64,000 bases of DNA, taken from positions 69,091-133,090 of IMG/VR virus record IMGVR_UViG_3300037493_005727; one strand, written 5' to 3'. The notes beneath the pieces were generated by a model, which searched no databases, was not told the DNA's origin, and saw only the letters and a program-made list of their open reading frames with translations. Made by a program: the position numbers and the translations under genes. Position 1 is the first letter of the stretch, and each line of letters begins with the position of its first letter. Origin of the DNA: a virus. Of the stretch, positions 14,727-53,016 are shown piece after piece.

Positions 14727-15025
14727 TTCTTGTTTCTCCGTAGCAGCAGGTCCAACTTCGAGTTGACCTGAAGCAGCAGCTTTCCCTGGTAGTCCCACTG
14801 CAACTCGTGCACGCCCAGTACGTTCGCACACGAGTCACAGAACCACTTGTCGACGCCTGGGCCTCGATGGGACATGTCGTACTTAGTCAGCTCTCGTTTG
14901 AGCTCACAGCCGTTGCATTCCCCTTTCACGGCAACCTCGTCAGCACGGCCTCTGGATGCCGAGGCCGCGTCGTGTAGCCGATGAGCTCGAACACCCAGTG
15001 GTCTCCACCTGGATCTCCGTTGCAC
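14723..15025 (-). CDS. small Cys-pair protein, paralog of 18729..18950 (start uncertain)
   Basis: ECNGCE...WFCDSCANVLGVHELQWDYQGKLLLQVNSKLDLLLRRNKK versus ARCEACD...KLCSTCADTVSLGFLRNDSLGKVLLQINSKLDVLSRQKKEK. The true start is probably internal. Confidence 0.4.
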   Translation of the reverse strand: MQRRSRWRPLGVRAHRLHDAASASRGRADEVAVKGECNGCELKRELTKYDMSHRGPGVDKWFCDSCANVLGVHELQWDYQGKLLLQVNSKLDLLLRRNKK

Positions 15026-18728: not shown

Positions 18729-18950
18729 TCACTTCTCCTTTTTCTGCCGTGAGAGTACGTCCAACTTGGAGTTGATCTGCAGCAGCACCTTTCCGAGGCT
18801 GTCGTTCCGGAGGAACCCGAGGCTCACGGTGTCGGCGCACGTCGAGCACAACTTCGTGGGCTGGGTTTTCAGGCTTCCAGGGATGTTTTCTTCGTAGGTC
18901 TTGAGGGTCCGCACAACGTCGCACGCCTCACAACGAGCTCGTTCGCTCAT
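18729..18950 (-). CDS. small Cys-pair protein, paralog of 14723..15025
   Basis: First gene of the leftward operon. C-terminal GKVLLQINSKLDVLSRQKKEK is shared with the paralog. Confidence 0.5.
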   Translation of the reverse strand: MSERARCEACDVVRTLKTYEENIPGSLKTQPTKLCSTCADTVSLGFLRNDSLGKVLLQINSKLDVLSRQKKEK

Positions 18951-19108: not shown

Positions 19109-19513
19109 ATGGCCGCCAGTATCACCCACACGCAGACTCGTACGGACACGGTGCCTCCGGTACCGGACGTGTACCCGAGCATCCCTAACACCCTGGATGC
19201 CAAGTACCGCGTCGTCGACGTTGTAACGGCCACGGTCAACATCGACCCTGAAGTCTTCGTGTACCGCTACAGCGACTGGGTGTTCGATCACGTAGCTACC
19301 GTGCTGGACATGGAGCAGATCCAAGAACTTACGCCAACTCCCGGCGCACCGTTTTACCGCCAGAACTACGTGGTGAGGGACTTCGCGAGTGAGAGCCAGG
19401 CCGCCGCCTTCGCAGAGGAACTGATCTCTCGAATGGAACGTCTGGCGTTGGAATACGTGTTGTACCCGTCGACGTTCGTTGGTACGACGACCGGTACGCT
19501 CCCTCCCCCGTAG
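19109..19513 (+). CDS. hypothetical protein, tandem paralog A
   Basis: 134 aa. VFVYRYSDWVFDHVATVLDM...PFYRQNYVV...LISRMERLALEY aligns with the next gene (LFTYRFSDGLYDHVSTTVDL...PFYRQSTVS...VESRLTSLAKEY). Confidence 0.6.
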   Translation: MAASITHTQTRTDTVPPVPDVYPSIPNTLDAKYRVVDVVTATVNIDPEVFVYRYSDWVFDHVATVLDMEQIQELTPTPGAPFYRQNYVVRDFASESQAAAFAEELISRMERLALEYVLYPSTFVGTTTGTLPPP

Positions 19514-19532: not shown

Positions 19533-19898
19533 ATGGCAGCCACGGTCATCAACTACACGCTGGTTCAGAGCACCATCCCGGGTCCCCCGGCGCAGTATCA
19601 GGTGCAGGCGACGATCAACACATCGCCAAACACCGGCACGTCGCTGTTCACGTACCGCTTCAGTGACGGCCTGTACGATCACGTGTCTACTACCGTGGAC
19701 CTGATGACGTACCCGACCGCGGCCAATCCTTCCTTCCCGTTCTACCGGCAGTCGACGGTGTCCTTTTTGTCCCAGAACGCAACCGAGGCCATCGACTTCT
19801 CCGCGATGGTCGAGTCTCGCTTGACGAGCCTGGCGAAAGAGTACGACGCAGTCGCGACGACCTTCGTGCCTGGTACGTACCCCATCGTTGTTCCGTAA
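19533..19898 (+). CDS. hypothetical protein, tandem paralog B
   Basis: 121 aa, homologous to 19109..19513 as described there. Confidence 0.6.
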   Translation: MAATVINYTLVQSTIPGPPAQYQVQATINTSPNTGTSLFTYRFSDGLYDHVSTTVDLMTYPTAANPSFPFYRQSTVSFLSQNATEAIDFSAMVESRLTSLAKEYDAVATTFVPGTYPIVVP

Positions 19899-19907
19899 GG
19901 ACGCACC

Positions 19908-21062
19908 ATGGCAACTACCCTCGGCCAGCACTGCACCGTCTTCCTGGACGTCGATGGGATCCAGCGGTTCAAGATCGTCTCCAGCGTCGACTCGGTCGAG
20001 GCGGGGGACCTCCCGCTCCACGGCGCCGCTCCGTACACCTCGTACATCTTCGTTCACAAGATCGTCGAGCCCACGGACGCCAAGGCTGACACGTTCCTTC
20101 GGGTTGGCAATGTCGCCGACCTCACCACCATCGCCATTGGGCGTGAGCTCGCGGTAGGCCTCGGGCAGTCGCTGTACCTGGCTATCGAGTTCACCGTCAT
20201 CTACGACGACATCGCCACGGCGAGCCAGGCGAAGACGCTCATTCAGCAGCGAGTCGACAACCTCATCGCCGACTGGCACAAGTACAACGAGGAGTTCCTC
20301 GCCCCTCTGACGACTCCGCCGGATCTCTCAACCATTCCCTTCCCGCTCACCCAGAGCGAAGAGGATGAACGCAAAGCAGCGTACGACGAGGCTCACGCAG
20401 AGCTCCTGGCGGCCAAGGCCGACTCCGCCCTCGCGGCGGTCGAAGCCTCGGCGTCCATCTCAGCGGCGGCTACCTGCAACGACGTCGCGTCCATCACCGT
20501 CGCGAACAGCCAAGAGTGCAGCAAGCTGCTGGGACAGTACAACGGCATCGTCACGGCTGAAGACGCCTTCCGCGGCGCTGTCACCTCATTCGCTCCGTCG
20601 GCGGTCACCTTCTCCGACGCATCGTTGGTCTTCTTCAACGCGTGTACGGCCTACCAGACGGCGAGCGCAACGTACATCAGCTACGGCATCACGCCGACTA
20701 CTCCACAGCGCCAGGCGTTCATGGATGCCAAGCTCACCTGGGATAACGCCCTCACCGCTTGGAACAATGTGCGGGTAACGTTCAACGCCGCGGGCCTCAA
20801 CTCGGCCATCGCAGCTGAGTCCATCAACGGCGCTCCCGCCATGGCGACTCTTCAGACCGACATGTCTAAGGCCTGCACGACAAAGATCTCCGAGGTCACG
20901 GCCGCTGCAAGCAAAAAAACAGAGTGCGACAAGGCGGCGGCCGAGGCCACGACCGCAAAGAAGGCAGCCGACGAAGCTCTGTCGGCCGCCCTCCTCGCAG
21001 ATACGCAAGCCTACCTCGAGGTCAAGGCCCTGTGCCCTGAGTTTGAACGCACTGTCCCGTAG
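19908..21062 (+). CDS. Ala/Thr/Ser-rich hypothetical protein (possibly virion-associated)
   Basis: 384-aa ORF. The opposite-strand ORFs (19518..20279-, 20586..21008-) are Arg/Gly-rich artefacts. Confidence 0.5.
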   Translation: MATTLGQHCTVFLDVDGIQRFKIVSSVDSVEAGDLPLHGAAPYTSYIFVHKIVEPTDAKADTFLRVGNVADLTTIAIGRELAVGLGQSLYLAIEFTVIYDDIATASQAKTLIQQRVDNLIADWHKYNEEFLAPLTTPPDLSTIPFPLTQSEEDERKAAYDEAHAELLAAKADSALAAVEASASISAAATCNDVASITVANSQECSKLLGQYNGIVTAEDAFRGAVTSFAPSAVTFSDASLVFFNACTAYQTASATYISYGITPTTPQRQAFMDAKLTWDNALTAWNNVRVTFNAAGLNSAIAAESINGAPAMATLQTDMSKACTTKISEVTAAASKKTECDKAAAEATTAKKAADEALSAALLADTQAYLEVKALCPEFERTVP

Positions 21063-21234
21063 CCGGGGCGGTGAGGAAGAAAGCGCACATCCTGAGGAAG
21101 TCTATCTTGTCGACAGCGACTTCTCGCTGATCGATGATGATGAACATCCATTTGTCTTCAGTCCCCTCGGCGAACTCGATGTCCTTGGGGTAGCTGTTGG
21201 AGCTGTCCTTCTGAAGCGTGAGTACGAGCTTCAT
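21022..21234 (-). CDS. small hypothetical protein
   Basis: 70 aa. ATGA overlap with the upstream gene at 21231-21234. Its tail overlaps the 3' end of 19908..21062 convergently. Confidence 0.35.
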   Translation of the reverse strand: MKLVLTLQKDSSNSYPKDIEFAEGTEDKWMFIIIDQREVAVDKIDFLRMCAFFLTAPATGQCVQTQGTGP

Positions 21235-22523
21235 GGGCGTACCTCCACTTTGTCCACATCTCCGAGGCGTCCATCAGACAGATGAGAGGCGACTTGGGAG
21301 ATCTTGGTAAGATCCGAGGTGTAGCGAGAAATCCAATTACCGTTCGTCCAAAGAACCGAAACGTAGCGGTCGTTACACCCCACAGCTGTGATGTATCTCC
21401 GATTCCCCCAACCGGTGGCCTGATAGCCGCGGCCAGTCTTGAGCGTGAGCCACAGCAGCGCTCGCAGCGTTGGATCTTTGACGGGCCCACGCTTCGCAGG
21501 CACGTCTGCTTCAATCAGCGCCAACCCAAAGGCCTTGGCGATGTCCTCGTACGTCTTGAGCATCCCGAACTCAGTGATTGACCCCTTGGCTCGGTGCACC
21601 GTCGCAACGACGCCGTCAGTGCCCTGTAGCTTGAGGCCTGTGAGCACAACGTTCCAGCGAGAGACCTTCGCGGTCTCCCCCATGTGCCGGGCAATCTCCC
21701 ATAGCTGCCACTCAGGCCAGGGGGATGCTTTCATCACCGCGGTGAGCCGACGGTCGGCTTCCTCGATGATGCTCGCTTCAGGCGGGTAGGCGCCCTTGCA
21801 GTGCGACGCCCTGTCGCAGCTGTCCTTGATGGGACATTTGACGCACTGCGTCTTCTTGAACCTCTTGGTGTCGGCTCCTTGAGTGGACGCCTCGGAGCGC
21901 TTCTTGTGGTTCTTCTCTGTTGCGTCGAAGTCGTGCTCCCAGTACGGGCGGATCGCCTTCGAGAATGCTTCTGTCCGTGTCGAACCAGGCTTCACGAGGG
22001 TGAACTCCCCCAGCTTGGTGTAGTGCTCCTGCACGTGCTCCCACAGGTCCTCAGCCTCGTGCGCTGGGGACAGCCTCGCTGGGAGCTCAATCCCGACTCC
22101 CTCAGACAAGCACTTCATCCCCTTGTCTGGGCAGTGCGTGCACCCCACCGCCTTGAACAAGGACAGGCACCGGTTGTAGCGCTGTCGCAGGTTCAGAGTG
22201 TATGGCTTCCCTTCGAGAAAGAATTGAAGATCCGGCGTATCGATCTTCGCGTCGTCCGGCAATTGCTCCGCAAGGTGCGTGGAGACGAGGACGAACTCCA
22301 TCTTCGGGGGCGTAGGCTTTTGGTTTCCCCACCAGCTGCTGTTGCGAGGCTGGGCGCCTGCGACCTGCGATACGAAGTACCCGTTTGAAAAGATCTTAGC
22401 GAGCTCCGGCAGGGCAGCTACCTTTTCGACGTCCAACGTCTCGAAGAGAAGAGAAGGGGTCGTAGAATCCTCCCGCCACCGGGATGAGTTGTTATCTGTG
22501 GCGGAACAGACGGTGTATCTCAT
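21231..22523 (-). CDS. hypothetical Cys-rich protein immediately downstream of the RT
   Basis: 430 aa with CTHCPDKGMKC and CVKCPIKDSCDRASHC clusters. ATGA overlap with the RT gene. Confidence 0.55.
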   Translation of the reverse strand: MRYTVCSATDNNSSRWREDSTTPSLLFETLDVEKVAALPELAKIFSNGYFVSQVAGAQPRNSSWWGNQKPTPPKMEFVLVSTHLAEQLPDDAKIDTPDLQFFLEGKPYTLNLRQRYNRCLSLFKAVGCTHCPDKGMKCLSEGVGIELPARLSPAHEAEDLWEHVQEHYTKLGEFTLVKPGSTRTEAFSKAIRPYWEHDFDATEKNHKKRSEASTQGADTKRFKKTQCVKCPIKDSCDRASHCKGAYPPEASIIEEADRRLTAVMKASPWPEWQLWEIARHMGETAKVSRWNVVLTGLKLQGTDGVVATVHRAKGSITEFGMLKTYEDIAKAFGLALIEADVPAKRGPVKDPTLRALLWLTLKTGRGYQATGWGNRRYITAVGCNDRYVSVLWTNGNWISRYTSDLTKISQVASHLSDGRLGDVDKVEVRP

Positions 22524-23716
22524 GTACCTGTCACCTCGAACGGTGGACTCTGGTTCTCGAGATCGACGGGTTCACTCTTCAGCTCCCCGTTTACGAACTC
22601 GAAGGAGGTGACGTCCTCCTGCTTGTGTGTCTCCTTCGCTTTCACGTAGAGCTTGAGCAGCTTCGCTGTCTTGTCCGGCGCGAACCGGGTGAAGTAGTTG
22701 AGCTTGCCTACGATCCACGCATGAAGCTGAGGTACAGACTCCTTCTTCGCGTACTTGAGCTGTGCCTCGAAGCCGTGCTGGTTCGCCTTGTAGAGGAGCA
22801 TGTGCATCTTGTTGTACTCGTTCGCTGGGATGTTCAGCTTACGATTGATGCTGATCCCCAAGAATCGTTGAGGACGCGACCAGTGCTGGACCTGCAGCTT
22901 CTTCCAGTTTACTCGGTAACCTGTGCTCTTGATGACGCGGTCAGCGGCTTGGATCACCTGAGAAACGTCGGGTGAGTTCAGCGGCTTGTCGTAGCTGAAG
23001 TACAGGTCGTCCGCGTACCTGGTGTAGCGCCACCCATCTGGTAGCGTCTTCATCAGCGGCTGGTCAATCTTCCAGTCGCACACCAGGTTGCAGATGTCCC
23101 CTGCCGTGAGCGCTCCCGGCGGAACACCGGTACGTGTCTTGTTCCGGTCGTCCCGGTAGTCGGTCGTGAGCAGCTGGCCCAAGAGCGACGAAGCGTAGTG
23201 GTTGTATCCAACGACCTCGTGGAAGTACTGGCGGATCCATGAACGGCGTGTCGACAAGAAGAAGTCCTTCAGGTCGAGCTTGAACTTGACCCCGCGTCGA
23301 GGGCAATCGTGCTTCACCGGGCTGGTGTGAGGCTTGGTCGTCTCGTCGCAGATCTTGCACTCGCGCAGGTGCAGTGACGCAGCGTCGATTGTGCTTTTAC
23401 CGAGCTGATAGGCCGCCACGTGCTGTCCCAGGTGTGTTGTCAGGGGCTGGAGGATGCGGCTCCGCATCTGCGCCTGGAAGATGCGCAGTAGGTCGTTGGG
23501 GTCGAAGGTTCGGCGCAGTCCGCCGGTCTTCTTCTTGACCATGAACTGCTTGTACATCTGGTCTCTGTGATCGACGATGTACCAGAACGTCTTTCCAGTG
23601 AACCCCAGCCGAAAGGCCAGAGTCCAGTCGTCGATGATGAACGGCACGTTGGGGAGATTTACGAGAGGAGCACGGACCTCGATCTTCTCGAGGAAGTTTT
23701 GTTTGTAGGTGGGCAT
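22520..23716 (-). CDS. reverse transcriptase (stand-alone prokaryotic RT, class unresolved; DGR-like motif 4)
   Basis: KKKTGGLRRTFDPNDLLRIFQAQMRSRIL (RT1-2), AAYQLGKSTIDAASLH (RT3), FKLDLKDFFLSTRR (motif A), GVPPGALTAGDICNLVCD (motif B', P-x-G-x-L-T-x4-N-L as in DGR RTs), RYADDLYFS (YADD catalytic box), FLGISI (motif D/E). Confidence 0.85.
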   Translation of the reverse strand: MPTYKQNFLEKIEVRAPLVNLPNVPFIIDDWTLAFRLGFTGKTFWYIVDHRDQMYKQFMVKKKTGGLRRTFDPNDLLRIFQAQMRSRILQPLTTHLGQHVAAYQLGKSTIDAASLHLRECKICDETTKPHTSPVKHDCPRRGVKFKLDLKDFFLSTRRSWIRQYFHEVVGYNHYASSLLGQLLTTDYRDDRNKTRTGVPPGALTAGDICNLVCDWKIDQPLMKTLPDGWRYTRYADDLYFSYDKPLNSPDVSQVIQAADRVIKSTGYRVNWKKLQVQHWSRPQRFLGISINRKLNIPANEYNKMHMLLYKANQHGFEAQLKYAKKESVPQLHAWIVGKLNYFTRFAPDKTAKLLKLYVKAKETHKQEDVTSFEFVNGELKSEPVDLENQSPPFEVTGT

Positions 23717-24345
23717 CAGTCTTCCTCAGCCAGCAGGTGGTTCTCAGTTGGAGGTGGCAGCGCCAACCCTTCCTGAAAGTGGTTGGTCATCCCGAGCCCC
23801 AGCGACGAGTAGCAAATGTCCTCGCCCAGGCGGCAGTGCCCGTTCTGGTGGTTGATGAAGTTGGGGCAGGCAACACACACCGGCCGAATGTTCTCGGTGG
23901 GCGTTTGCAGGTAGGTGAGCGCCGGGAACGGATCCGCGACTCCCACGGAGGATGCGCGCCGTCGTGAGCGTCGGGGCTTTGCCGGGTTGGTGGGGAGACG
24001 GTACTTGCCCGCGGCGGTGATGTACCGGGGCAAGTTGGACGCAACAAACTTGGCGAGAATGGGCACAGCCATCACCCAGTCCCCTGTCTCGAGAGCTTCT
24101 CGCCACTCCTCGTTGGTTGGCCCCTTCAGGTCATCGTTCCGATTGAACGCGTGCGTGTCGCCCGCTTCGATCTGAACGTGGTCCAGCAGCAGGTCCTTCA
24201 TGGTGTTCTCGACAGGCAATACCAGGGCGTAGCGAAACAGCTTCTTGAAGATGCTGTGTTCCCCGTTGCGAGCCAAATACACTCGATCAAAAGGGAACAC
24301 CTTTCCAGCCGCCTCGCGCTTGACGCGAAGACAGTACAGGTCCAT
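23716..24345 (-). CDS. hypothetical protein upstream of RT
   Basis: 209 aa. Overlaps the RT start by ATGA. CVACPNFINHQNGHC. Confidence 0.5.
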   Translation of the reverse strand: MDLYCLRVKREAAGKVFPFDRVYLARNGEHSIFKKLFRYALVLPVENTMKDLLLDHVQIEAGDTHAFNRNDDLKGPTNEEWREALETGDWVMAVPILAKFVASNLPRYITAAGKYRLPTNPAKPRRSRRRASSVGVADPFPALTYLQTPTENIRPVCVACPNFINHQNGHCRLGEDICYSSLGLGMTNHFQEGLALPPPTENHLLAEED

Positions 24346-24378: not shown

Positions 24379-24903
24379 TCAGTACCGCTGAGCAGCGAAC
24401 TCGCTTCGGATGTTCCGCCACTTTCCTGAGAGCCAAAGCGCGTCGAGGCGCTTCAGTTCTTCTTCGATGCGCTTGAGCTGCTTCTTACGCCCTGTCGGGC
24501 GATCCCACGTTTGTGGCTGCGGCACCAGGCATCCTACCCAGTTGATCTTCACCAGCTGAGGCAGCCCGGCCCGCCACGTCGATGTGATGTACAGCGGCCA
24601 ATCTTCGTAGCCGTCGTAAACGATGTACTTGTAGGGTCCGTGGACCTTGTCGCAATGCTTGGTGGGGTACGTCTTCCGCTTCCCAACCTTGAGAGCGACC
24701 CAGGCGCACACTGAGATCATGTAGTCGCTGGTCGACGTTGCATCAAACCCAATGCGACAGGGACCGTGGTCGTACGAGAGGTCACGATCAATCGGTCCCC
24801 GCGCATAGGGGTCCAGTGTGTGGTTGTAGTGTCTCGAGAGGAAGGCCATCATCTCCTTCTTGGCCTTCTCACTCTTGATCGGCGTCGCGATGGAGTAGCC
24901 CAT
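24379..24903 (-). CDS. hypothetical protein
   Basis: 174-aa ORF. Confidence 0.5.
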   Translation of the reverse strand: MGYSIATPIKSEKAKKEMMAFLSRHYNHTLDPYARGPIDRDLSYDHGPCRIGFDATSTSDYMISVCAWVALKVGKRKTYPTKHCDKVHGPYKYIVYDGYEDWPLYITSTWRAGLPQLVKINWVGCLVPQPQTWDRPTGRKKQLKRIEEELKRLDALWLSGKWRNIRSEFAAQRY

Positions 24904-24906
24904 GGC

Positions 24907-25185
24907 TCACGGTGGCAGAATGACGATCTGCCCGCCCGTCTCCTTGACCCGCTTGATGACGTCCATGATGTTGAGCGCCTTCACCTGCTTGGAGCGCTTC
25001 TCGACGTATCCTGACCCGTCATCCGCCCGCATCAGCTCGCCGTCGTGCACGTACTCCGTGCCGTCTTTGCGCCGGTACACGCAGCGGTTCTTCTTCGTCT
25101 CCTCGGAGTACTTGGTATTCCCCGTGAGGTCCGTGTCGTAGTGCTTGATGGTGATGTCTTCTTTTCGGATTGGTGTCGGCATCAT
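24907..25185 (-). CDS. hypothetical protein (internal-Met start)
   Basis: MMPTPIRKEDITIKHYDTD.... ATGA overlap at 25182-25185. Confidence 0.4.
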   Translation of the reverse strand: MMPTPIRKEDITIKHYDTDLTGNTKYSEETKKNRCVYRRKDGTEYVHDGELMRADDGSGYVEKRSKQVKALNIMDVIKRVKETGGQIVILPP

Positions 25186-25394
25186 TGCTCCTTCCAAGTG
25201 GTCACAGCCGCTTCGAATGCTCTGTGGGCATCTTCGCACGCGTTGCTAATCCACATCCTGCCGTGCAAGGACTCTGGTGTCTTGTCCAGGGGCTTCCACT
25301 CCCCGTACTTGAGATCTCTATTTGCGTCCCGCGCGAGATCTCCGATTGGCCCAGTCTCTTTTTTTTGGGTGAGAAGCCAGTCTAGAAACTCCAT
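25182..25394 (-). CDS. hypothetical protein
   Basis: 70-aa ORF immediately downstream of the VWA gene. Confidence 0.4.
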   Translation of the reverse strand: MEFLDWLLTQKKETGPIGDLARDANRDLKYGEWKPLDKTPESLHGRMWISNACEDAHRAFEAAVTTWKEQ

Positions 25395-25396
25395 GG

Positions 25397-27028
25397 TTAC
25401 TCCTCCTTCATTTTGAACATCTCGATCAGTCGGTTGGGTGCGATGTTGTCCATCCCGTCACACGGCGAACAGTTGGGCATGAGCAGCCAGATGATGGGGC
25501 ACTGCGGTTGGTACTTCGGGAAGCATTCGCCCATCAGGCCGACGCCTCCGTCCGTACAGATGACCATCAGGTCGGGAGCAGGGTGCTTCTCCTGCAACCG
25601 AGGGGCTCCTTCGACCCAGTCTTCAGGTTCGTCGCAACCAGCGACTCGCTTGAAGAATGGCGTGTACACCGTACCCCCATGACCTCGGCGGTTCTGGAGC
25701 TCCTTGATGTACGCTTCATCAGGAGGCTCGACGTTGGTGACCTTCACTTCCTTCTGAAGGGCCGCGTCGCACTCGACGTAGGTCACGAAGACCGACTTGT
25801 TCTGAGCGAGCAGTGAGTTGATACAGGCGCAGGCACGGGCGTACTCGTCGTCTCCCATCGAGCCAGACGTGTCCGTCATCCAGGTGATGTTGTACCCGAA
25901 CTCCAGCATCTGCCCCGGCCACGGCTCCAGGTAGTCCTCGTTGATGAGCGACAGGTTCGGTGACCCCATCTCCTCATGCACTCGGGCGGTGATCGCTCCT
26001 TGGATGATGTCGCGGAGGAACGTGTCCCATGGAATCTGCTCAGGCTCGAGCAGCGCGTCGATGATCCTCTGGATGTTTCCCGCCATGTAGCCACGGTCGC
26101 GGTGCACGCGCTCGTTCGCCGCTCTCGCCAGTGATTGAGCGTGCTTCTTCATCTTCGTACCCGCGGAGATGGCTTCTTCCGGCGTCATCTCTTCGGCCTT
26201 CTCGTTCCACTGCTTGTGCGCCTTGCCGGACATCTTGTCGAAGGCCTTTTGCAGCTTCTCGAACGTCTCCGGATTGTTGATGGCCTGGTTGATCAGCGAG
26301 TCCGGGAGGCCAGGAATCTTGTTGGGTACCCCGCCTCCCTTCCCCTTTCCGAAGGGGCTCTCCATGACATCCCCGCTCCCCTCACCCTCGCCTCCTTCGC
26401 CTTCGTCGCCTTCCTCGCCTTCTCCGTCACCATCGACGAATTCGACGTCGCCGCGGTCAAGGGCGTCATTGAGATCCTTCAACATCTGCTCAACCTTGTT
26501 CTTGAACCCCTGGAGATCGTCGAGCATCAGCGTGAAGTACTCTTCCATCGAGAGCCCTGTGGGCATCCCGAACTCTTCAGGGAGCAGGAACGTCCATTCA
26601 CCGACCCCAACGCCTCGAGGGCGATGGACCTCTTTGAACTTTGGCTCCAAGCGAACAATGGCGTCGTTGGCCGCGAAGTCCGCCGCGAAGTTGAAGGTGG
26701 TCAGCACCGCCCTTCGGACGAACGGATCTGTACACGCCGCGAGCATCTTGAAGAGTCGCGGGATGTGATTCAGCGCGATGTGCGCTGCTTCGTGAACCAG
26801 GACGAGCAGCCTCATGTGAGGCGAGCACTGTTCAAAGAACGGCATGTGGCATGTGAGGACGTAGCGCCAGTTCTGCGTAAGGTGCACGGACATCGTGCCC
26901 TCGCTGTTGGTGTAGTTCTTCTGGCACCCGTTGATGAGCATGGCCCAGTAGTTGGCCGAACCGCGCCGCGATACCCAGTAAACCAGCGACTTCGCTAGTT
27001 CGTTTTCTTCAGGATTGGTGGTAGTCAT
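25397..27028 (-). CDS. VWA-domain protein with N-terminal HExxH metallopeptidase-like domain (DUF2201-type MoxR partner)
   Basis: LVHEAAHIALNH (HExxH); a poly-acidic linker GDGEGEEGDEGEGGEGEGSGD; a VWA/MIDAS-like WMTDTSGSMGDD...VICTDGG. The architecture is the one known to pair with MoxR AAA+ ATPases. Confidence 0.7.
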   Translation of the reverse strand: MTTTNPEENELAKSLVYWVSRRGSANYWAMLINGCQKNYTNSEGTMSVHLTQNWRYVLTCHMPFFEQCSPHMRLLVLVHEAAHIALNHIPRLFKMLAACTDPFVRRAVLTTFNFAADFAANDAIVRLEPKFKEVHRPRGVGVGEWTFLLPEEFGMPTGLSMEEYFTLMLDDLQGFKNKVEQMLKDLNDALDRGDVEFVDGDGEGEEGDEGEGGEGEGSGDVMESPFGKGKGGGVPNKIPGLPDSLINQAINNPETFEKLQKAFDKMSGKAHKQWNEKAEEMTPEEAISAGTKMKKHAQSLARAANERVHRDRGYMAGNIQRIIDALLEPEQIPWDTFLRDIIQGAITARVHEEMGSPNLSLINEDYLEPWPGQMLEFGYNITWMTDTSGSMGDDEYARACACINSLLAQNKSVFVTYVECDAALQKEVKVTNVEPPDEAYIKELQNRRGHGGTVYTPFFKRVAGCDEPEDWVEGAPRLQEKHPAPDLMVICTDGGVGLMGECFPKYQPQCPIIWLLMPNCSPCDGMDNIAPNRLIEMFKMKEE

Positions 27029-30574: not shown

Positions 30575-32191
30575 ATGACTCAAATGAACATCGGCACGAA
30601 GCGGTTGTCGGAAGTCGCAGAGGGTCTGCTCTGGCTGGACGGCGCCCCGTTCAGCTTGGATGACTACCCGATGTACCGGAACATCTACGACGGACGCTAC
30701 AAAGCGACTCTCCTGATGTGTGGCCGACAGGTGGCCAAGTCGACATCCCTGGCGAACTTCATCATCTCGGAGTCTGTCGCTCTTCCGTTCTTCCGGTCCT
30801 ACTACGTCTCTCCTTCAAAAGAGCAGACGCTGATCTTCTCTAACACACGTGTGGGTAAGACGCTTTCGTACTCCCCCATTGTGAAGAAGTTCTTCCAGTC
30901 CCCGGAGCACGCAGACCGCGTGCTTCACCGCTCGTACACCAACGGATCCGAGAACGCGTTCACCTACGCCTGTGATGACGCCGACCGCGCTCGAGGCTTC
31001 TCAGCTGATCGAGTCAGCTACGACGAGTTCCAGGACATGCTGTACGACTCAGTGGTTCCCGTCATCAACGCCTGCATGAAGAACTCGAACTACCGCTTCG
31101 AGACCTACGCAGGAACGCCGAAGACGATGGAAGCCAGCATCCAGTACCTCTGGGACAAGTCGTCTCAGAGCGAGTGGGTGATGAAGTGCGACGGCTGCTC
31201 GAAGTACAACTTCGTCGTCGACGAGAAGTCCCTAGGACTGCACGGGCCCATCTGCCTCAACTGCGGTAAGGTGCTCAACCCCCGTATCGGGCAGTGGGTC
31301 GACATGAAGAAGGTCGATTCCAAAACCGGGAGACACTCGGTGAAGGGGTTTCACATCCCCCAGCTGATCATGCCTCTGAACATCCCGTCTTGCGTGAACA
31401 ACACGCCGGAAAAGCCGGATGCCAAAAAAGACGCTCAAGAGCGTTGGGACGACATCCTTCGAGACCACGACATGTTCTCGTCGGCGAAGTTTCGCAACGA
31501 GGTGTTGGGAGTCTCTGACGCCATCGGTCGTCGTCTCATCTCTCTCGAGGAGCTTGAGGCTCTTTGTACGGGCCCTAAGATTTCAGCGTACCCCGACAAG
31601 AATCTCGAGGGATGCACCGTCACCTTCGCCGGGGTGGACTGGTCTGGCGGCGGGACCACTGGAGTAAGCCGCACCGTGCTTTGGATCTGGGGCTGGCACC
31701 CCGGCAGTCAGAAGCTACGGACGCTGTACTACCGCATCTACCCTGGCAACAACGCCGTCACGGACGTCGAGGACATCGCCAAGATTTGTCAGCAGTACTC
31801 AGTCGCTCTGGTTGTCGGAGACGCTGGAGAAGGCGCTCTGCCTAACGCCACCCTTCGCGCTCGCCTTGGTGCCCACCGAGTGACGATGGTGCAGTACGGC
31901 GCGCTGGGCCAGCCCATCAAGTGGAACGGTCTCGACCGATACTTGGCTGACCGAACCACGCTGATCGACAACTACCTCATGTTCCTGAAGAGAGGCGCGG
32001 TGGTCTACCCGCCACAGGAAGAGGCGCGGGAAGCCATCAAGGACATCCTCAACGTCTACGAAGAGGTGACCACCGCGGGCAAGAAGGTGTGGAGGCACAG
32101 CCCACAACTCCCAGATGATTGTCTCCACGCCCAGCTCTTTGGGTGGTTCGCCTCGAAGATTCACATGAACGACCTTAAGTTCTACGCTTAA
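30575..32191 (+). CDS. terminase large subunit
   Basis: LLMCGRQVAKSTSLANF (Walker A) and the T7 gp19-like ATPase/nuclease layout (...FQDMLYD..., DAGEG). The track ORF begins at 30536, but that would overlap the divergent MoxR start (30551). The Met at 30575, after GGTGGTGG, is preferred; the Met at 30584 is also possible. Confidence 0.75.
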   Translation: MTQMNIGTKRLSEVAEGLLWLDGAPFSLDDYPMYRNIYDGRYKATLLMCGRQVAKSTSLANFIISESVALPFFRSYYVSPSKEQTLIFSNTRVGKTLSYSPIVKKFFQSPEHADRVLHRSYTNGSENAFTYACDDADRARGFSADRVSYDEFQDMLYDSVVPVINACMKNSNYRFETYAGTPKTMEASIQYLWDKSSQSEWVMKCDGCSKYNFVVDEKSLGLHGPICLNCGKVLNPRIGQWVDMKKVDSKTGRHSVKGFHIPQLIMPLNIPSCVNNTPEKPDAKKDAQERWDDILRDHDMFSSAKFRNEVLGVSDAIGRRLISLEELEALCTGPKISAYPDKNLEGCTVTFAGVDWSGGGTTGVSRTVLWIWGWHPGSQKLRTLYYRIYPGNNAVTDVEDIAKICQQYSVALVVGDAGEGALPNATLRARLGAHRVTMVQYGALGQPIKWNGLDRYLADRTTLIDNYLMFLKRGAVVYPPQEEAREAIKDILNVYEEVTTAGKKVWRHSPQLPDDCLHAQLFGWFASKIHMNDLKFYA

Positions 32192-32378
32192 CAGCCAAGG
32201 CGTAGACATCTTCGATCAACTTGGCAAAGTCTTCGTAAGGCACGTAGCCTTCAACAGTTCCATGCCCTCGACAGGCGGGGCAGGCAACCATTTCTCCGTA
32301 TTCCCGCTGCCCTCCGGGGATCTTCTTTTCCCCGTGGCAGTACTCACATCCCAGACGAACAACGAACGACTTGATCAC
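32175..32378 (-). CDS. small DnaJ-type zinc-finger protein
   Basis: CEYCHGEKK...CPACRGHGTV (CxxCxGxG repeats). Probable GTG start after TAGGAGTCACC. Confidence 0.45.
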   Translation of the reverse strand: MIKSFVVRLGCEYCHGEKKIPGGQREYGEMVACPACRGHGTVEGYVPYEDFAKLIEDVYALAVKRRT

Positions 32379-32698
32379 GGTGACTCCTAAGCGCGCACGG
32401 TTCGGATCACCCGATCCGAAACCTGCGGCACGTGGTGACTCCTACGATTGTAATTCCCACACCCCCGGGAATTACATCACGGTACAGCTTTAGAGATCAT
32501 GACCGCACTACGCGGTCGGTGCTTTACAGCACTCTGAACGAATCACCAGAGCCAACAGAACTCTTCTTTGTTTTATCATCTGCAGCAGCTCGAGGCGGCC
32601 GCGGCGGACATCTTCGAGGAGGACCTCGTCGAAGCACGGCCGTATGAAAACATCCTGGGTGTAGCGAGAGCTAGGCTCTGCGTATCACCCACGGCCAA

Positions 32699-32742
32699 AA
32701 TGTCTCCACTACGGAGACGCCGGGTAGGTACCGGAGCAAGAG
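32699..32742. repeat. 42-bp hairpin-containing direct repeat, copy 1
   Basis: AATGTCTCCaCTACGGAGACGCCGGGTAGGTACCGGAGCAAGA contains a GTCTCC(g)...CGGAGAC stem-loop and a CCGG-GTAGGTA-CCGG element. An AGCTAGGCT box sits ~30 nt upstream. Confidence 0.6.
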
Positions 32743-32899
32743 TTCACGACGTTTCCCTTCTTTCCTCTTTGTTCTATCGGTCCGAGCTGGGACCTGGTCG
32801 AGGGGTCTTCTTGTTCGAGGAGCTCGAAGGAGCTCCCCAGTCAAGGATGACCCTCGTCGTCGGCAAAGCAGCTGGGCTGCGCGCCGACCGTAAGTGTTC

Positions 32900-32941
32900 A
32901 TGTCTCCGCTACGGAGACGCCGGATAGGTACCGGGGCAGGA
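32900..32941. repeat. 42-bp hairpin-containing direct repeat, copy 2
   Basis: ATGTCTCCGCTACGGAGACGCCGGaTAGGTACCGGgGCAgGA. An AGCTGGGCT box sits upstream. Confidence 0.6.
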
Positions 32942-33090
32942 AAGGTAAGGCAGATCTTCTGAGTTCCAACATGTCTGAAGAGCTCGGCGATGGCGCTGCA
33001 TAACGAAAGCCTCCAACGCGGCTAACAGCTCGTCCCTCGAGGACGTCCAGGTGTCGAAGTAGCTAGGCTACAAGACACCACCGGGAGGGA

Positions 33091-33134
33091 AATGTCTCCG
33101 CTACGGAGACGCCGGGTAGGTACCGGAGCAAGAT
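33091..33134. repeat. 42-bp hairpin-containing direct repeat, copy 3
   Basis: AATGTCTCCGCTACGGAGACGCCGGGTAGGTACCGGAGCAAGA. AGCTAGGCT upstream. Ends 12 bp before the exonuclease gene stop. Confidence 0.6.
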
Positions 33135-33145
33135 CTTTTATCGAA

Positions 33146-48201: not shown

Positions 48202-51200
48202 ATGGCGCTGACATCCGTGCTCACCGATGCCGAGTCCCGGCGGACTCAAATCCGAGCGAAAGCGCTTGAGGCGCTCCGCGCCGCCTTTCCCTTGCCCCTT
48301 AGGGACAAGCAGATCCAAGTCTCTGATCTGCAGGTCCACCACAAAGACTACGGGCCGAACGACCAGAAGCAGGCGCTGCTCAGCGGCGGATCCCTCTTCG
48401 AGCCCGTCAAGGGGACCATCACTCTTCGAGGCGCTGACGGCAAAGAGATCGAGAAGGTAAAAGGTTTTACCTTGCTCAACCTCCCGTTCTTCACTGGGCG
48501 GCACACCTTCATCTTGGACGGCAACGAGTACAACGTCTCAAACCAGCTCCGTCTGAAGCCGGGCGTGTACACTCGACGGCGAGGAAACGAAGAGCTCGAA
48601 GCGGCCTTCAACCTTTCGAAGGGGGCTAACTTTCGGTTGTCCCTGGACCCCGCCCAAGGGCACCCGTACGTCGAGTACGGAACTACCGCCATTCCGCTTT
48701 ACTCAGTATTGCGGAAGTTGGGAGTCCCGCACGCAGACATCTCGTCGCACTGGGGATCCGATGTAGCGGGGCAGAACGAGGCTGCGTTCGCAGGGAAGCA
48801 CGACAAGCACCTCGCCAAGCTCTACGAGAAAGTGACGCATCCGTCCAAGCGCACGGCCACCAACCCTGAGACGCAACTAGAGGCAGTGCGCGCCGCTTAC
48901 GCTGCGACCGCGATGGACCCTGAGGTCAACAAGGAGACTCTGGGGCACGAGTTCTCGTCGGTCACCCCTCAGGCGCTGCTGGTTGCGTCGAAGCGCCTCC
49001 TCAACGTCTACAAGAACAACGCCCCTGTAGATGATCGTGACGCTCTGCAATTCAAGACCTATCACTCGGTCGACGACTTCATCAAAGAGCGCATCACTCT
49101 CGACGCCCGAGCCCTGGCCAGCAAGGTGAAAGGGCGGGCGACGCACAAGACCGGGCTCCGAGAAATCCTCCCGTCGTCGCCTTTCTCTGGTGGCATCCGG
49201 AGCTTCCTCACCGGCTCACAGCTGAGCTCGATTCCGACGCACATCAACCCGATGGAGGCCATTGATCACGCCGTTAGGGTTACTTCTCTGGGTGAAGGCG
49301 GCATTGCCAACGAACGGGCAATCCCCGCAGAAGCCCGAACCATCCACTCAAGCCATCTCGGTATCCTGGACCCGATTCGTACCTCAGAGTCGTTCCGTGC
49401 AGGCATCGACATCCGTACGGCATTCGGGGCTCATCGGGATGAGCGAGGGAATCTGTACACGATGGTAAAGGATGTGAAAACAGGTAAGGGGGTCATGCTC
49501 TCGGCGTCTGAGATGTCTAGCGCCGTGGTGGCATTCCCGAAGCAGAAGATGTCTGGGATGATCGCCGCGATGGACAAGGGAGAAGTCGCTCACGTCCCTG
49601 CGTCCAAGGTGACCCACGAACTCTACGACGCTGCTCAGCTCTACTCTCCCGCGACGAACCTCGTACCCTTCCTCGAGTCTGTTCAGGGGAACCGTGGAAT
49701 CATGGGCGGCAAGGTTCAGACGCAGGCTCTACCGCTCGTTCACAGAGAAGCTCCCCTCGTACAGTCGGGGGTCTCTTCATCGGACAAGAACGGACAAAGC
49801 ATCAGCTGGGAGCGGCAGCTCGCTCACCTCGCGCTCCCCGTTTCTCCCGTTGCAGGGAAGGTAGTGAAGATCGACGGGCAGTACATCTACATCGACCCGT
49901 CTGGGAAGAAGCACGCTGAGGACTTCGGGATCGAGAAGAACTCGTTCGAGAAGCGCGGCGGGGCAGTCAAACGACAGAAGACCATCAAAGGACTTTGCTT
50001 CAAGCTTGAGCTCGAGCCTGGAGACATCCGCTCTGGCGTATCCCCCGAAGGTAAGAAGTGGGAGAAGAAGATGTCCCTCGCCTACGGGCACATTCCCAAG
50101 ACGGTTGGGGATGACGGCGAGACCGTAGACATCTACTTGAAGGAAGATGGCGTCTTCGATCACGTGTACGTTGTTCGTCAGAAGAAGCGCGACGGATCAC
50201 ACGATGAAGATAAGTGCATGGTGGGGTTCGACTCGAAGGACGCCGCGAAAGACGCCTACGAGAAGCACGGACCGGAATGGGGTTACGGGTCGTTGGAAGA
50301 GTATACCTGGGATGAGTTCCAGGACGACTACCTTTCAGAGCGGCAGCGCGAGAAGGCCGCTGCTGAGAAGGATCTCGTACGCGTTCCGTATGACAGCAAC
50401 TTGCCTTTCGCGTCCAAGACCTATCTACACCACGATCTCTTAGTGAAGCCGGGGGACCACGTCACCGCTGACCAGCATCTCGCTGAGTCCAACTTCACGC
50501 GGGACGGCGCCTTTGCTCTGGGCCGCAACATGACCATCGGGTACATCCCTTACTACGGGATGAACTCGAACGACGCTGTCGTCATTTCGGAGGGCGCTGC
50601 GGACAAGCTCACGTCTGAGCACATGTACAAGGAGATCGTTGAAGTCGAGAGGGACGCAATCGTGGGGCGCGACGTCCACCAGCAGTACTACGGGCCCAAG
50701 TACACCGCGGAACAGTACCGCAAGCTCGACGCCAACGGCGTAGTACGCAAGGGCATGAAGGTGATGCCTCACGACATCCTGATCGCCGGAGTTACCAAAG
50801 GAAAACTTTCCGCGTCAGACGCCCTGCTAGGCAACCTGAAGAAGACTCTGGTTCACCCCTATCGCGAGCTCGTTCGCACCTGGGATCACGACTACGAGGG
50901 GGACGTCATCGACGTGCACGTCACAGACAAGCGCGTCGTGGTGACCGTTAGGACGAAAGAGCCGATGCGCGTCGGCGACAAGCTCACGGGACGGCACGGA
51001 AACAAGGGCGTTGTTTCCATGATCGTACCGGACCACAAGATGCTTCAGGATGAGAAGGGTAAGCCGCTCGAGGTGCTCTACACCTCAGCAGGCGTCATCT
51101 CGCGTATCAACCCGGCGCAGATTCTTGAAACGGTGGTAGCCAAGGTCGCCAAGAAGATTGGGAAGCCCATCATCGTTGAGAACTTCTCGGGGAGGGACAA

Positions 51201-53016
51201 CGTGCAGTGGGCGAAGGACTTGCTCAAAGAGCACGGGGTCAAGGACAAGGAAACGCTTTTCGACCCTGTCTCTGGGAAGAAGATCCCCGGCATTCTGGTT
51301 GGGCCGCAGTTCGTGCTCCGCTTGTTCAAAACCACGGAGACTAACTTCGCAGCCCGCGGCACGGGGGCCTACGACGTCAACCAGCAGCCCATCAAAGGCG
51401 GAGACGAGGGCGCAAAGGCCGTCGGCAAGATGGAGTTCAATGCACTGGTTGCGCACAACGCCCGTAACGTGCTGCGAGAGACAGCGACGATCAAGAGTCA
51501 GAAGAACGACGAGTTCTGGCGCTGCGTCCAGTTGGGGCTACCGCTCCCTCCGCTGAAGTCTTCGTTCGCCTACGACAAGTTCGTGGGAATGCTCCACGGG
51601 GCAGGAGTGAAAGTGGACACCCGGGGGAGTGTGAGCACTCTGTCTCCTTTGACGGACCACGACATCCTGAAGATGTCCTCCGGCGCGATTCAGAACGAGA
51701 AGCTGGTTCGGGCCAAGGATCTCGCCCCTGAGCGCGGAGGCTTGTTCGACCCGGCGGTGACGGGCGGGACCGTCGGTACCCGCTGGAGCCACATCGAGCT
51801 CGCCGAGCCCATCATCAACCCCATCTTCGCTGACCCCGCTCGCCGTTTGCTCGGGATGACGTTGAAGGAGTTCGACAAGTTTCACCACGACAATGGTGGG
51901 GCGCAGATCAAGAAAAAGCTAAACGCCATCAACGTGAGTGGGCGTATCGACGAGCTGCGGAGCTCCATCAAGAAGTTGAACGGGGTGAAGCTCGACGACG
52001 CAGTGAAGCAGCTCAAGTTCCTAGAGGCTCTGCACCGGCAGAAGCTCCAGCCTGGGGACGCCTACGTGCTGTCCAAGCTCCCAGTTCTGCCTCCGCTCAT
52101 GCGTCCGATCCTCCCAGGAAAGAGCGGGTCTGAGCTCGTCGTAGGGGATTCGAACTACCTCTACCAGAGCGCCATGCTCCACAACCGCTCACTCCAGCGG
52201 CAGGTCGACTCTCCTGTTCTCCCCCCCGATGAGCACGCCAAGCTGCGGCAGAATCTCTTCAACGCAGTGGGCGCCGTCGTCGGAACGCACGAGTCCGACA
52301 ACCCCAAGCTCTTGAAGCGCAACGTGAAGGGTCTGCTCGAGCACCTCACGGGGAAGACGACTCCGAAGAGCAGCTACTTCCAGAAGAAGATCATGAAGCG
52401 GCAGCAGGACATCTCCGGGCGCGGAACCATCGCTCCTGACGGGTCCTTGGGCATGGACGAGATCGGTCTCCCAGAAGACATGCTCTGGGGGATGTACGGG
52501 AAGTTCGTAATCGCTCGTTTGGTTCGTCGAGGCTTTGGCGCCGTCGCTGCGAAGGAGATGGTGGAGAAGAAGCACCCCGCGGCGCACGACGCGCTGATGG
52601 CCGAGCTCAAAGAACGCCCCGTGATGGTGAACCGCGCCCCCACACTGCATCGGTACGGCTTTGTTGGCGCCAACCCTGTGCCCGTGGCGGGTAAGACGAT
52701 CCGGGTGAACCCCTTCATCGAGCTCGGAATGAACGCCGACTATGACGGCGACACCTTCCAGATTCACGTCCCAGTTCTTCCTGGGGCCGTGCAAGAGGTG
52801 AAGGGGATGACTCTCTCCAATCTTCTCTTCTCTGACCGAGAGAAGGATAGCTTGATGGTCGCTCCCCGCATGGAGGCTATGCTAGGAGTTCACCTGGCTT
52901 CCAAAGCAGAAGGATCTGCCAACGGGCAGACTCACAAGTACAAAACGAAGGCGGACGCCATGGCAGCATACAAACGTGGTGAGATCACGCTCAGCTCGAA
53001 GGTAGAGGTAGGCTAA
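48202..53016 (+). CDS. fused multisubunit RNA polymerase beta subunit + N-terminal half of beta' subunit
   Basis: 1604 aa. Beta: ...SLGEGGIANERAIPAEARTIHSSHLGILDPIRTSESFRAGIDIRTA, LVPFLESVQGNRGIMGGKVQTQALPLV, MRVGDKLTGRHGNKGVVSMI, GKMEFNALVAHNARNVLRETATIKSQKND. Beta'-N: HIELAEPIINPIF, MVNRAPTLHRYGF, NADYDGDTFQIHVPV (the catalytic Mg triad). The usual N-terminal beta' zinc-finger cysteines are absent. Confidence 0.9.
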   Translation: MALTSVLTDAESRRTQIRAKALEALRAAFPLPLRDKQIQVSDLQVHHKDYGPNDQKQALLSGGSLFEPVKGTITLRGADGKEIEKVKGFTLLNLPFFTGRHTFILDGNEYNVSNQLRLKPGVYTRRRGNEELEAAFNLSKGANFRLSLDPAQGHPYVEYGTTAIPLYSVLRKLGVPHADISSHWGSDVAGQNEAAFAGKHDKHLAKLYEKVTHPSKRTATNPETQLEAVRAAYAATAMDPEVNKETLGHEFSSVTPQALLVASKRLLNVYKNNAPVDDRDALQFKTYHSVDDFIKERITLDARALASKVKGRATHKTGLREILPSSPFSGGIRSFLTGSQLSSIPTHINPMEAIDHAVRVTSLGEGGIANERAIPAEARTIHSSHLGILDPIRTSESFRAGIDIRTAFGAHRDERGNLYTMVKDVKTGKGVMLSASEMSSAVVAFPKQKMSGMIAAMDKGEVAHVPASKVTHELYDAAQLYSPATNLVPFLESVQGNRGIMGGKVQTQALPLVHREAPLVQSGVSSSDKNGQSISWERQLAHLALPVSPVAGKVVKIDGQYIYIDPSGKKHAEDFGIEKNSFEKRGGAVKRQKTIKGLCFKLELEPGDIRSGVSPEGKKWEKKMSLAYGHIPKTVGDDGETVDIYLKEDGVFDHVYVVRQKKRDGSHDEDKCMVGFDSKDAAKDAYEKHGPEWGYGSLEEYTWDEFQDDYLSERQREKAAAEKDLVRVPYDSNLPFASKTYLHHDLLVKPGDHVTADQHLAESNFTRDGAFALGRNMTIGYIPYYGMNSNDAVVISEGAADKLTSEHMYKEIVEVERDAIVGRDVHQQYYGPKYTAEQYRKLDANGVVRKGMKVMPHDILIAGVTKGKLSASDALLGNLKKTLVHPYRELVRTWDHDYEGDVIDVHVTDKRVVVTVRTKEPMRVGDKLTGRHGNKGVVSMIVPDHKMLQDEKGKPLEVLYTSAGVISRINPAQILETVVAKVAKKIGKPIIVENFSGRDNVQWAKDLLKEHGVKDKETLFDPVSGKKIPGILVGPQFVLRLFKTTETNFAARGTGAYDVNQQPIKGGDEGAKAVGKMEFNALVAHNARNVLRETATIKSQKNDEFWRCVQLGLPLPPLKSSFAYDKFVGMLHGAGVKVDTRGSVSTLSPLTDHDILKMSSGAIQNEKLVRAKDLAPERGGLFDPAVTGGTVGTRWSHIELAEPIINPIFADPARRLLGMTLKEFDKFHHDNGGAQIKKKLNAINVSGRIDELRSSIKKLNGVKLDDAVKQLKFLEALHRQKLQPGDAYVLSKLPVLPPLMRPILPGKSGSELVVGDSNYLYQSAMLHNRSLQRQVDSPVLPPDEHAKLRQNLFNAVGAVVGTHESDNPKLLKRNVKGLLEHLTGKTTPKSSYFQKKIMKRQQDISGRGTIAPDGSLGMDEIGLPEDMLWGMYGKFVIARLVRRGFGAVAAKEMVEKKHPAAHDALMAELKERPVMVNRAPTLHRYGFVGANPVPVAGKTIRVNPFIELGMNADYDGDTFQIHVPVLPGAVQEVKGMTLSNLLFSDREKDSLMVAPRMEAMLGVHLASKAEGSANGQTHKYKTKADAMAAYKRGEITLSSKVEVG

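Follow-up and report, generated by a model that had tools for sequence, protein, structure and literature searches.

A retron-type reverse transcriptase and two orphan partner proteins encoded as a conserved module in a lineage of uncultured large phages

Locus organisation

The DNA analysed here (hereafter the window) is a 64,000-nucleotide stretch of a virus genome (positions 69,091 to 133,090 of the IMG/VR record IMGVR_UViG_3300037493_005727), which carries on its minus strand a reverse transcriptase (RT) gene of the retron type set between two conserved genes, W_209 and W_430, with which it makes up a three-gene module. Its features are as follows (coordinates are those of the window; aa, amino acids; ORF, open reading frame):

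22520..23716, minus strand: reverse transcriptase, retron-clade, catalytically intact as judged from its residues, 398 aa (ORF call, profile searches, alignments)
23006..23017, minus strand: YADD catalytic box of the RT, aa 234-237 (read from the sequence)
23369..23386, minus strand: region X of the RT, DAASLH, aa 111-116, counterpart of the retron NAxxH (alignment A1 and joint alignment with cellular RTs)
23297..23368, minus strand: Cys/His insertion of the RT, aa ~117-140 (C120, C123, H136, C138), between region X and RT motif 3 (alignment A1)
22856..22864, minus strand: region Y triplet of the RT, FLG, aa 285-287, replacing the retron VTG (alignments)
23716..24345, minus strand: W_209, 209 aa, directly upstream of the RT (ORF call, homologues)
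23812..23877, minus strand: cysteine cluster of W_209, C157-x2-C160-x10-C171-x6-C178, invariant (alignment A3, 38 sequences)
21231..22523, minus strand: W_430, 430 aa, directly downstream of the RT, fastest-evolving of the trio (ORF call, homologues)
22110..22169, minus strand: cysteine cluster 1 of W_430, C119-x8-C128-x2-C131-x6-C138, invariant (alignment A2)
21798..21845, minus strand: cysteine cluster 2 of W_430, C227-x2-C230-x5-C236-x5-C242, invariant, preceded by a basic helix (alignment A2)

A preliminary description, made from the letters of this DNA, had placed an RT ORF with a YADD box at this site, flanked without intergenic space by cysteine-containing ORFs of 209 and 430 aa, and in all of this it was right. 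Its claim that ATGA overlaps chain the RT to both neighbours applies to the RT/W_430 junction (ACATGAGA), whereas W_209 and the RT are joined by TGATG, with a 1-nt overlap. Overlaps of this kind tie the three genes closely together, with coupled translation. The epithet 'stand-alone' has to be given up, as the RT forms a conserved module with its two neighbours. The ratios of nonsynonymous to synonymous substitution rates (dN/dS) of 0.13-0.38 across the RT, W_209 and W_430 place all three under purifying selection and, together with the conserved homologues, mark W_209 and W_430 as genuine genes on comparative grounds.

The reverse transcriptase belongs with retron enzymes

The match of the RT to Pfam RVT_1 runs through the whole profile (positions 1-205 of 205, E = 1.4e-16). 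In the RT family (alignment A1, 23 members) Y234, D236 and D237 are invariant or nearly so, and all four residues of the YADD box are invariant in an alignment that takes in cellular retron-type RTs (A9). The ORF is thus real and, as read from its fully kept catalytic residues, catalytically intact.

Profile searches converged on a single class. The top 25 PADLOC matches of the window RT were all retron RT models, headed by RT_XIII (Mx162-like; 155 bits, E = 6.5e-46), while the family members without the Cys insertion reached 232-241 bits on the type XIII RT model, which was their best match every time. The best NCBIfam matches were likewise retron families, and retron RT models can be aligned with the N-terminal and thumb regions from end to end. 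A family profile built from the 23 members of alignment A1 was searched against all PDB sequences, where it scored the retron RTs Ec67 (121 bits), Ec86 (112), Ec78/St85 (87-88), Kva2 (81), Ec83 (79) and Eco8 (46), as against ~36 bits for group II RTs and 29 or less for DRT enzymes. By these profile scores the RT is a member of the retron RT radiation. In a scan of 185,579 species genomes the first matches were three phage contigs mis-binned into metagenome-assembled genomes (MAGs), followed by cellular RTs, the nearest of which (Myxococcota, Planctomycetota, Verrucomicrobiota) were 25-32% identical to the phage RT. Sequence comparison thus identifies retron RTs of type XIII (Mx162-like) as its nearest characterised relatives, with an identity that does not exceed 32%, and sets the phage family apart as a lineage separate from the cellular type XIII RTs.

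The separation is visible in the motifs that typify retron enzymes. Region Y guides retron RTs to their msr; across the phage family it reads xLG, with L286 and G287 invariant, so that of VTG (found in all the cellular type XIII-like RTs aligned here) only the glycine is kept and the threonine has become leucine. In region X, defined for retrons as NAxxH (PMC7736814), the phage enzymes have D(A/T)AxxH, where A113 and H116 are invariant and the asparagine is replaced, the cellular relatives having TNAxxH in the joint alignment. The two residues reported as the most conserved in retron RTs, the histidine of region X and the glycine of region Y (Mestre et al. 2020, PMC7736814), are nevertheless both retained. 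The Cys/His insertion, a putative zinc-binding element, is found in most of the family, is longer and gains a second CxxC in the clade of ~50% identity, and is missing from P0110-P0114 and from the cellular type XIII-like RTs.

The preliminary description had also seen in motif 4 a string of the kind found in diversity-generating retroelements (DGRs). The string (PPGALTAGDICNL) is present; its DGR-type reading is doubtful, as the consensus of the family, VPQGAPTSGDICNL, lines up with LPQGACTSPALSN in cellular RTs of the retron type. Similarly, the reported lack of a maturase/X domain holds in the group II sense only, as a thumb/region-Y domain (aa ~290-370) is alignable to retron RTs. The group II RT/maturase family TIGR04416 gave 46.8 bits on the window RT (cutoff 300), no group II maturase (X) domain was found, and Rfam matched no group II intron in the window.

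The three genes are inherited as a unit

Clustered at 90% identity, the RT family amounts to more than 110 clusters, and IMG/VR contributes 275 relatives; a metagenome scan for close relatives returned only 6 loci. Genomic contexts compared at 77, 49, 39, 34 and 31% RT identity share a common block made up of an AAA_5 ATPase, W_241, W_329, DUF2201, W_209, the RT, W_430 and the convergent W_384, in which W_241 and W_329 are two divergently oriented genes without assigned role, placed between the ATPase and DUF2201. The order W_209-RT-W_430 is kept in almost every related contig of 143-197 kb, down to 28% RT identity, the module genes being co-oriented and abutting or overlapping across loci. 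Iterated hidden Markov models, applied to 88 loci, found 67 in which a homologue of W_209 immediately precedes the RT and 55 in which one of W_430 immediately follows it; a few lineages have the RT but lack W_430 (e.g., L003, L046, L059; L numbers denote the loci compared), and an ORF of 82-84 aa stands between W_209 and the RT in some close relatives. Over four relatives, the identities decay in parallel with those of neighbouring genes (RT 77/49/39/31%, ATPase 85/56/36/25%, W_329 84/53/46/38%, W_209 69/41/29/30%), which argues for vertical descent rather than horizontal spread.

Presence and absence were assessed in loci anchored on W_329 instead of the RT, 41 of which had enough flank. The RT and W_209 were present together in 31 of them, all but one of these also having W_430, and in the remaining ten the fetched range contained none of the three genes. 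Among these ten, L155 and L064 are one and the same contig, on which the RT sits just outside that range. Five RT-less loci form one clade in the W_329 neighbour-joining tree, sister to the window's own subclade, and a sixth (L139) is rearranged. This RT-less subclade keeps DUF2201, W_329, W_241 and W_384, and at the module site its genomes have orphan ORFs (382-397 or 188-190 aa) that match no PADLOC model and have no significant match in Pfam. Considering that the genes are present or absent together, the module behaves as one functional unit, and the existence of a monophyletic subclade without it indicates that it is not required for the basic lytic cycle in that lineage. Searched against the species genomes, the W_209 and W_430 profiles recovered only the three mis-binned phage contigs and never a cellular RT locus.

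The module is bounded by two conserved genes:

25397..27028, minus strand: DUF2201_N peptidase and vWA-like protein, upstream boundary in most relatives (context; no functional link shown)
19908..21062, plus strand: W_384, convergent conserved 384-aa gene, downstream boundary (context)

The DUF2201/vWA protein is read in the literature as a co-chaperone of the MoxR ATPase (PMC7824862). It abuts W_209 in most relatives; in the window the two are separated by three small ORFs (174, 110 and 70 aa; 24379-25394, minus strand), of which those of 174 and 70 aa have no homologue in the 88 loci and that of 110 aa occurs in the closest relatives only. This interval, immediately ahead of the module, has the look of a hotspot for lineage-specific insertions.

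Partner proteins

In the AlphaFold2 model of W_209, a basic linker of low confidence connects an alpha/beta domain at the N terminus with a Cys4 domain at the C terminus; the models of both W_209 and W_430 are mixed alpha/beta and not helical repeats. The invariant Cys4 clusters of both proteins are putative metal-binding sites. Neither protein matched a PADLOC effector model, a significant Pfam domain or a recognisable fold, and they show no homology to each other. A sub-threshold Pfam match of W_430 (DDE_Tnp_1_6, aa 206-242, E = 7e-4) was discarded, for it reflects the CxxCP..C motif only. W_430 diverges 2-3 times faster than the RT.

Retron RNA models and structured elements

Rfam 15, at gathering thresholds, found no msr beside the cellular type XIII-like RTs that served as positive controls. 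Rfam negatives on phage loci hence carry little weight, and for the same reason the cellular element was derived de novo. It is a nucleotide-conserved block of ~240 nt upstream of the RT in most cellular loci, with terminal inverted repeats (e.g., CCAGCTTTCAAGGAGA and TCTCCTTGGAAGCTGG) and two hairpins, one conserved (GCUGCGGCG-UUCC-GCCGCGGU), the other long, variable and kept by covariation; the msr-msd loci (L167-L243, e.g. L174:3861-4100) come from Myxococcota, Planctomycetota, Verrucomicrobiota and others. A covariance model (R1) of its conserved 5' part, seeded from 21 cellular loci, recovered the element in 23 further cellular loci outside the seed (26-111 bits), each time on the same strand as the RT and upstream of it. 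A 20.6-bit match of R1 in the phage locus L003 was dismissed, as it skips the hairpin and lies inside a 73-aa ORF.

The strongest synonymous-constraint peak of the module falls on RT codons 259-273 and overlaps a local peak of structure stability. The stretch (TACCGAGTAAACTGGAAGAAGCT, 22898-22942) is nearly invariant at synonymous sites in nine relatives, the rare Val codon GTA being used in 9 of 9 and the Arg codon CGA in most. A two-fold lower synonymous divergence (dS) of the RT gene vanished when other conserved neighbours were compared. The only consistent structure dip in 39 diverse loci lies at the convergent W_430/W_384 junction, where we read it as a terminator; in the window, a near-perfect 20-bp hairpin at ~20950-21000, within the 3' end of W_384, is probably the operon terminator, and for the structured 3' region as a whole (20850-21240) z is -1.4. 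An extra 70-aa ORF (21022-21234) lies between W_430 and this hairpin.

The largest non-coding stretch of the window (32390-33145), flanked by the terminase and by an exonuclease-like gene, consists of four arrayed units of ~200 nt. Each has a T-rich box, a variable middle of ~90 nt, a box reading GCTAGGCT and two hairpins in succession (GTCTCC-RCTAC-GGAGAC, then GCCGG-RTAGGTA-CCGG). The array recurs, with five units, at the syntenic site of a relative of 77% identity (L001:262-1250), where the ends of the units are conserved, the middles have diverged and the stems stay paired via compensatory changes. It has no Rfam match; it could hold hairpin promoters, small RNAs or origin or packaging (ori/pac) sites and, speculatively, RT templates, although nothing ties it to the RT. 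Beside it, outside the called ORFs, a small ORF of ~66 aa (~32177-32375, minus strand) was read by eye; it has two CxxC pairs (DnaJ-like CxxCxGxG), and ahead of it lies an AGGAG box with a duplicate at a distance of 55 nt (GGTGACTCCTA twice).

IMG/VR contigs of up to 185 kb (L071, L072, L073, L080-L084, L086) encode a second phage family of retron-type RTs. Its members are 43-60% identical to one another and ~25% to the window RT, and their region Y reads VCG. At least four of them (L072, L073, L082, L083) are solitary genes behind 500-700 nt without ORFs, and such an ORF-free stretch upstream of the RT is the classic place for a retron non-coding RNA (ncRNA). The ORF-free regions upstream of these RTs showed no shared conserved block and no R1 match.

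The phage lineage

The window encodes a class I ribonucleotide reductase, a helicase-primase, PolA, an SNF2-type helicase, a GpA-type terminase, a MoxR (AAA_5) ATPase beside the DUF2201 peptidase/vWA protein, and two large proteins with RNA polymerase (RNAP) beta-subunit-like regions, i.e. split RNAP beta-like subunits; no tRNA genes were found in it. At the DNA level no relative was found among cultured phages, PolA reaches no more than 26% identity to any INPHARED phage, and the conserved W_329 has no match among INPHARED phages. An identical RT protein is encoded on a contig of 190,250 bp, and relatives on contigs of 143-197 kb. The source is an uncultured lineage of large, jumbo-like phages.

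Phage contigs of the clade that were binned into MAGs carry the labels Archaeoglobales (L164, QMZE01000001.1), Bathyarchaeia (L165) and Gemmatimonadaceae (L166, CAYTFY010000008.1, a contig of 169,868 bp). L164 and IMGVR_UViG_3300014914_000004 are a single contig of 78,677 bp, and the placements are probably binning artefacts rather than host evidence. Elsewhere in the window, a protein of 1604 aa (48202-53016, plus strand) joins RNAP beta-subunit-like regions to a region (aa ~590-720) linked by PHROGs to virion/lytic-transglycosylase-type proteins, which suggests an RNAP fusion packaged in the virion. Two small neighbouring genes (134 and 121 aa; 19109-19513 and 19533-19898, plus strand) are paralogous, with a 57-nt match at 72% identity and a shared FxYRxSDxxxDHV motif, and another match (66 nt, 74%) links 14729-14794 to 18738-18803, in ORFs ~4 kb apart.

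Comparison with known systems

Type XIII retrons (RT clade 10) comprise Mx162/Retron-Mxa1, Mx65, Sa163 and Ne144 (Mestre et al. 2020, PMC7736814); they are vertically inherited, have their own type of ncRNA, are associated with HEAT/ARM proteins and a WH-SWIM protein, and may, as has been suggested, have functions other than defence (PMC7736814). The phage module resembles them in RT architecture (an N-terminal LA..LG helix region, RT0-7 and thumb), in the association of the RT with two genes and in an inheritance that is vertical rather than island-like. It differs in its motifs (xLG, D(A/T)AxxH and TSGDICN, as against VTG, TNAxxH and TSPALSN in the cellular enzymes), in lacking the cellular insertion before motif 4 and having gained the Cys/His one, and in lacking both the protein with WH plus SWIM Zn-finger (CxCx12CxH, DEDE; cluster 114) and the HEAT/ARM-repeat (WGR-like) partner. 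Furthermore, the module is phage-borne, no msr-msd element was detected in it, and W_209 and W_430 never occur beside cellular RTs.

Among phages, the lytic Staphylococcus jumbo phage MarsHill encodes gp206, a retron-like RT (not a DGR one) whose function is not known (bioRxiv 10.1101/2020.12.14.422802). Here too a retron-type RT is found in a large phage with multisubunit RNAPs and with no recognised effector; the window RT, however, is only ~26% identical to the Staphylococcus phage RTs, over half the protein. Moreover, gp206 has an N-terminal extension of ~200 aa and an upstream non-coding region of 1.2 kb proposed to hold an ncRNA, whereas the window RT is flanked gap-free by two conserved partner genes.

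The Escherichia coli retrons Ec67 and Ec73 are prophage-borne. Ec67 (structures 9i2f/9lm3) was the top PDB match, and a retron RT on a phage-derived element is shared with the window; yet these retrons are accessory cargo of temperate P2/P4-type elements, with a canonical msr-msd and a fused or adjacent effector (Toprim), while the module of the window is lineage-wide and syntenic in large phages, has orphan partners and no detected ncRNA. UG27, a virus-resident multi-gene RT module for which an addiction or anti-defence role rather than host defence has been proposed (Mestre et al. 2022, PMC9226505), is also conserved within phage lineages; its RT, however, is of UG/Abi class 2 and not a retron one, an ncRNA is predicted in its intergenic region, and its carriers are gut Crassvirales-like phages, which differ from the lineage of the window. 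Literature searches found no description of this RT family, of its partners or of its clade-wide conservation. The novelty lies in the combination: the RT is of the retron type, its partners and its genomic lifestyle are new, and a canonical RNA was not detected.

Proposed function and alternatives

On balance, we lean towards a retron-derived RT complex, domesticated by the phage, which would make complementary DNA (cDNA) from a template other than the ancestral one. The RT, W_209 and W_430 (the latter two being basic Cys4 proteins) would act as one complex during infection and synthesise a small cDNA on an RNA other than a type XIII-like msr, which may be part of the transcript of the module itself or be found at another place in the genome. 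Of the three, it would be the fast-evolving W_430 that faces the host or a competitor, and the most likely role would be in host takeover, counter-defence or the exclusion of rival phages; since a whole subclade does without the module, a part in genome replication is less likely.

Several results weigh against this proposal. Most concern the template, as no such RNA was identified: Rfam gave no match on the window or the phage loci; R1, run on the window with filters off, gave at best 13.3 bits (E = 0.2), at an unrelated position away from the RT; and on 62 phage loci it found nothing credible. Synonymous-site conservation in nine to ten close relatives per gene showed only peaks of ~45 nt, none of msr-msd size; the structure peak inside the RT (codons 259-273) showed no covariation; and a position-anchored folding z-score scan of the 39 loci detected no conserved structure except at the operon 3' end. 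No type XIII-like msr is present in the window or the phage loci; the template ncRNA could be divergent, embedded or distant, and the readable part of the genome was the 64 kb of the window, about a third of ~190 kb. In addition, complex formation, metal binding and cDNA synthesis are all deduced rather than observed, W_209 and W_430 offer no clue to function, and stable synteny with core-like divergence is unusual for conflict systems, which are normally patchy and mobile. No computed result separates this proposal firmly from a toxin-antitoxin retron or a housekeeping role.

The module could be a canonical tripartite retron for abortive infection or superinfection exclusion, in which the multicopy single-stranded DNA (msDNA) would hold a toxic W_430 in check, with W_209 as an accessory, until a rival phage triggers its release. 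The retron-clade RT, a three-gene layout that parallels the type XIII RT and its two accessory genes (PMC7736814), the fast evolution of the putative effector W_430 and the dispensability of the module in one subclade all fit, yet we consider this doubtful: no ncRNA came to light despite a validated probe for the nearest cellular type and generic scans, region Y is changed invariantly from T to L, inheritance is vertical and syntenic rather than island-like, and neither partner matches an effector model of PADLOC. We are equally hesitant about a virus-specific RT machine that has abandoned msr-msd and copies another RNA into a cDNA needed by the phage in infection. Such an enzyme would have been retargeted via the altered region Y and the new zinc insertion, with the help of two metal-cluster proteins of novel fold, and its templates might be phage or host transcripts, or the array of ~200-nt hairpin units 9 kb away. 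A housekeeping function, the RT making a cDNA or primer for genome replication, end maintenance, packaging or virion assembly, appears less probable still. It would account for the core-like vertical inheritance, for divergence rates equal to those of neighbouring core genes and for the fixed position near the MoxR/vWA chaperone pair, the terminase and the replication genes, and it would agree with the non-defence functions suggested for the vertically inherited type XIII relatives (PMC7736814); a monophyletic subclade, however, has only small orphan ORFs in place of the module, and nothing beyond proximity ties the RT to replication proteins.

Two further options had been raised in the preliminary description beside the retron-like one, which PADLOC and the PDB profile bear out. 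An RT of UG/Abi/DRT type, with untemplated, protein-primed or concatemeric cDNA synthesis, would have a precedent in the virus-resident multi-gene system UG27 (PMC9226505), and the undetected retron ncRNA leaves room for non-retron priming. We hold it to be very improbable, considering that Drt3a scored 21 bits on the window RT (cutoff 200), that DRT structures stayed at 29 bits or less where the retron RTs reached 79-121 (Eco8, 46), with no search having been aimed at UG27 itself, and that the N-terminal and thumb regions follow the retron models throughout. A DGR with its template repeat embedded in coding sequence has in its favour a phage-encoded RT, as in BPP-1-type elements, and a superficial resemblance in motif 4, and has next to no credibility left. 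The preliminary description had seen no template repeat/variable repeat (TR/VR) pair by eye, and the whole 64-kb window, covered by a repeat search and by sensitive self-blastn (word size 7) with a test for A- or T-confined mismatches, yielded none either; adenine-biased pairs being absent from it and the RT grouping with retron RTs, the DGR fails there on the very grounds that the description had named. No DGR RT appeared among the PDB matches of the family profile (E up to 1), and W_209 and W_430, which had been put forward for a check of their folds, are neither Avd-like nor C-type-lectin-like, which leaves the RT without an Avd or a variable target protein.

Significance

As the model of the type XIII msr derived de novo makes plain, this RNA goes undetected by Rfam 15 in the tested loci. 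As compact RTs (340-400 aa) with a different RNA-recognition motif, the phage enzymes may be of interest for retron-based genome editing.

Retron RTs are known as bacterial anti-phage devices, in which the RT is combined with an ncRNA of its own and with a toxic effector. In the present case an RT derived from retrons stands on the side of the phage, long fixed in a widespread clade of large environmental phages and paired with two proteins found nowhere else, while the RNA that defines its cellular cousins was not detected. If the RT makes cDNA, it would represent either the repurposing of host immune hardware by a phage or a new use of reverse transcription in the life cycle of a DNA virus; and should msr-msd indeed have been abandoned, the module would constitute a new functional class of reverse transcription in DNA phages.

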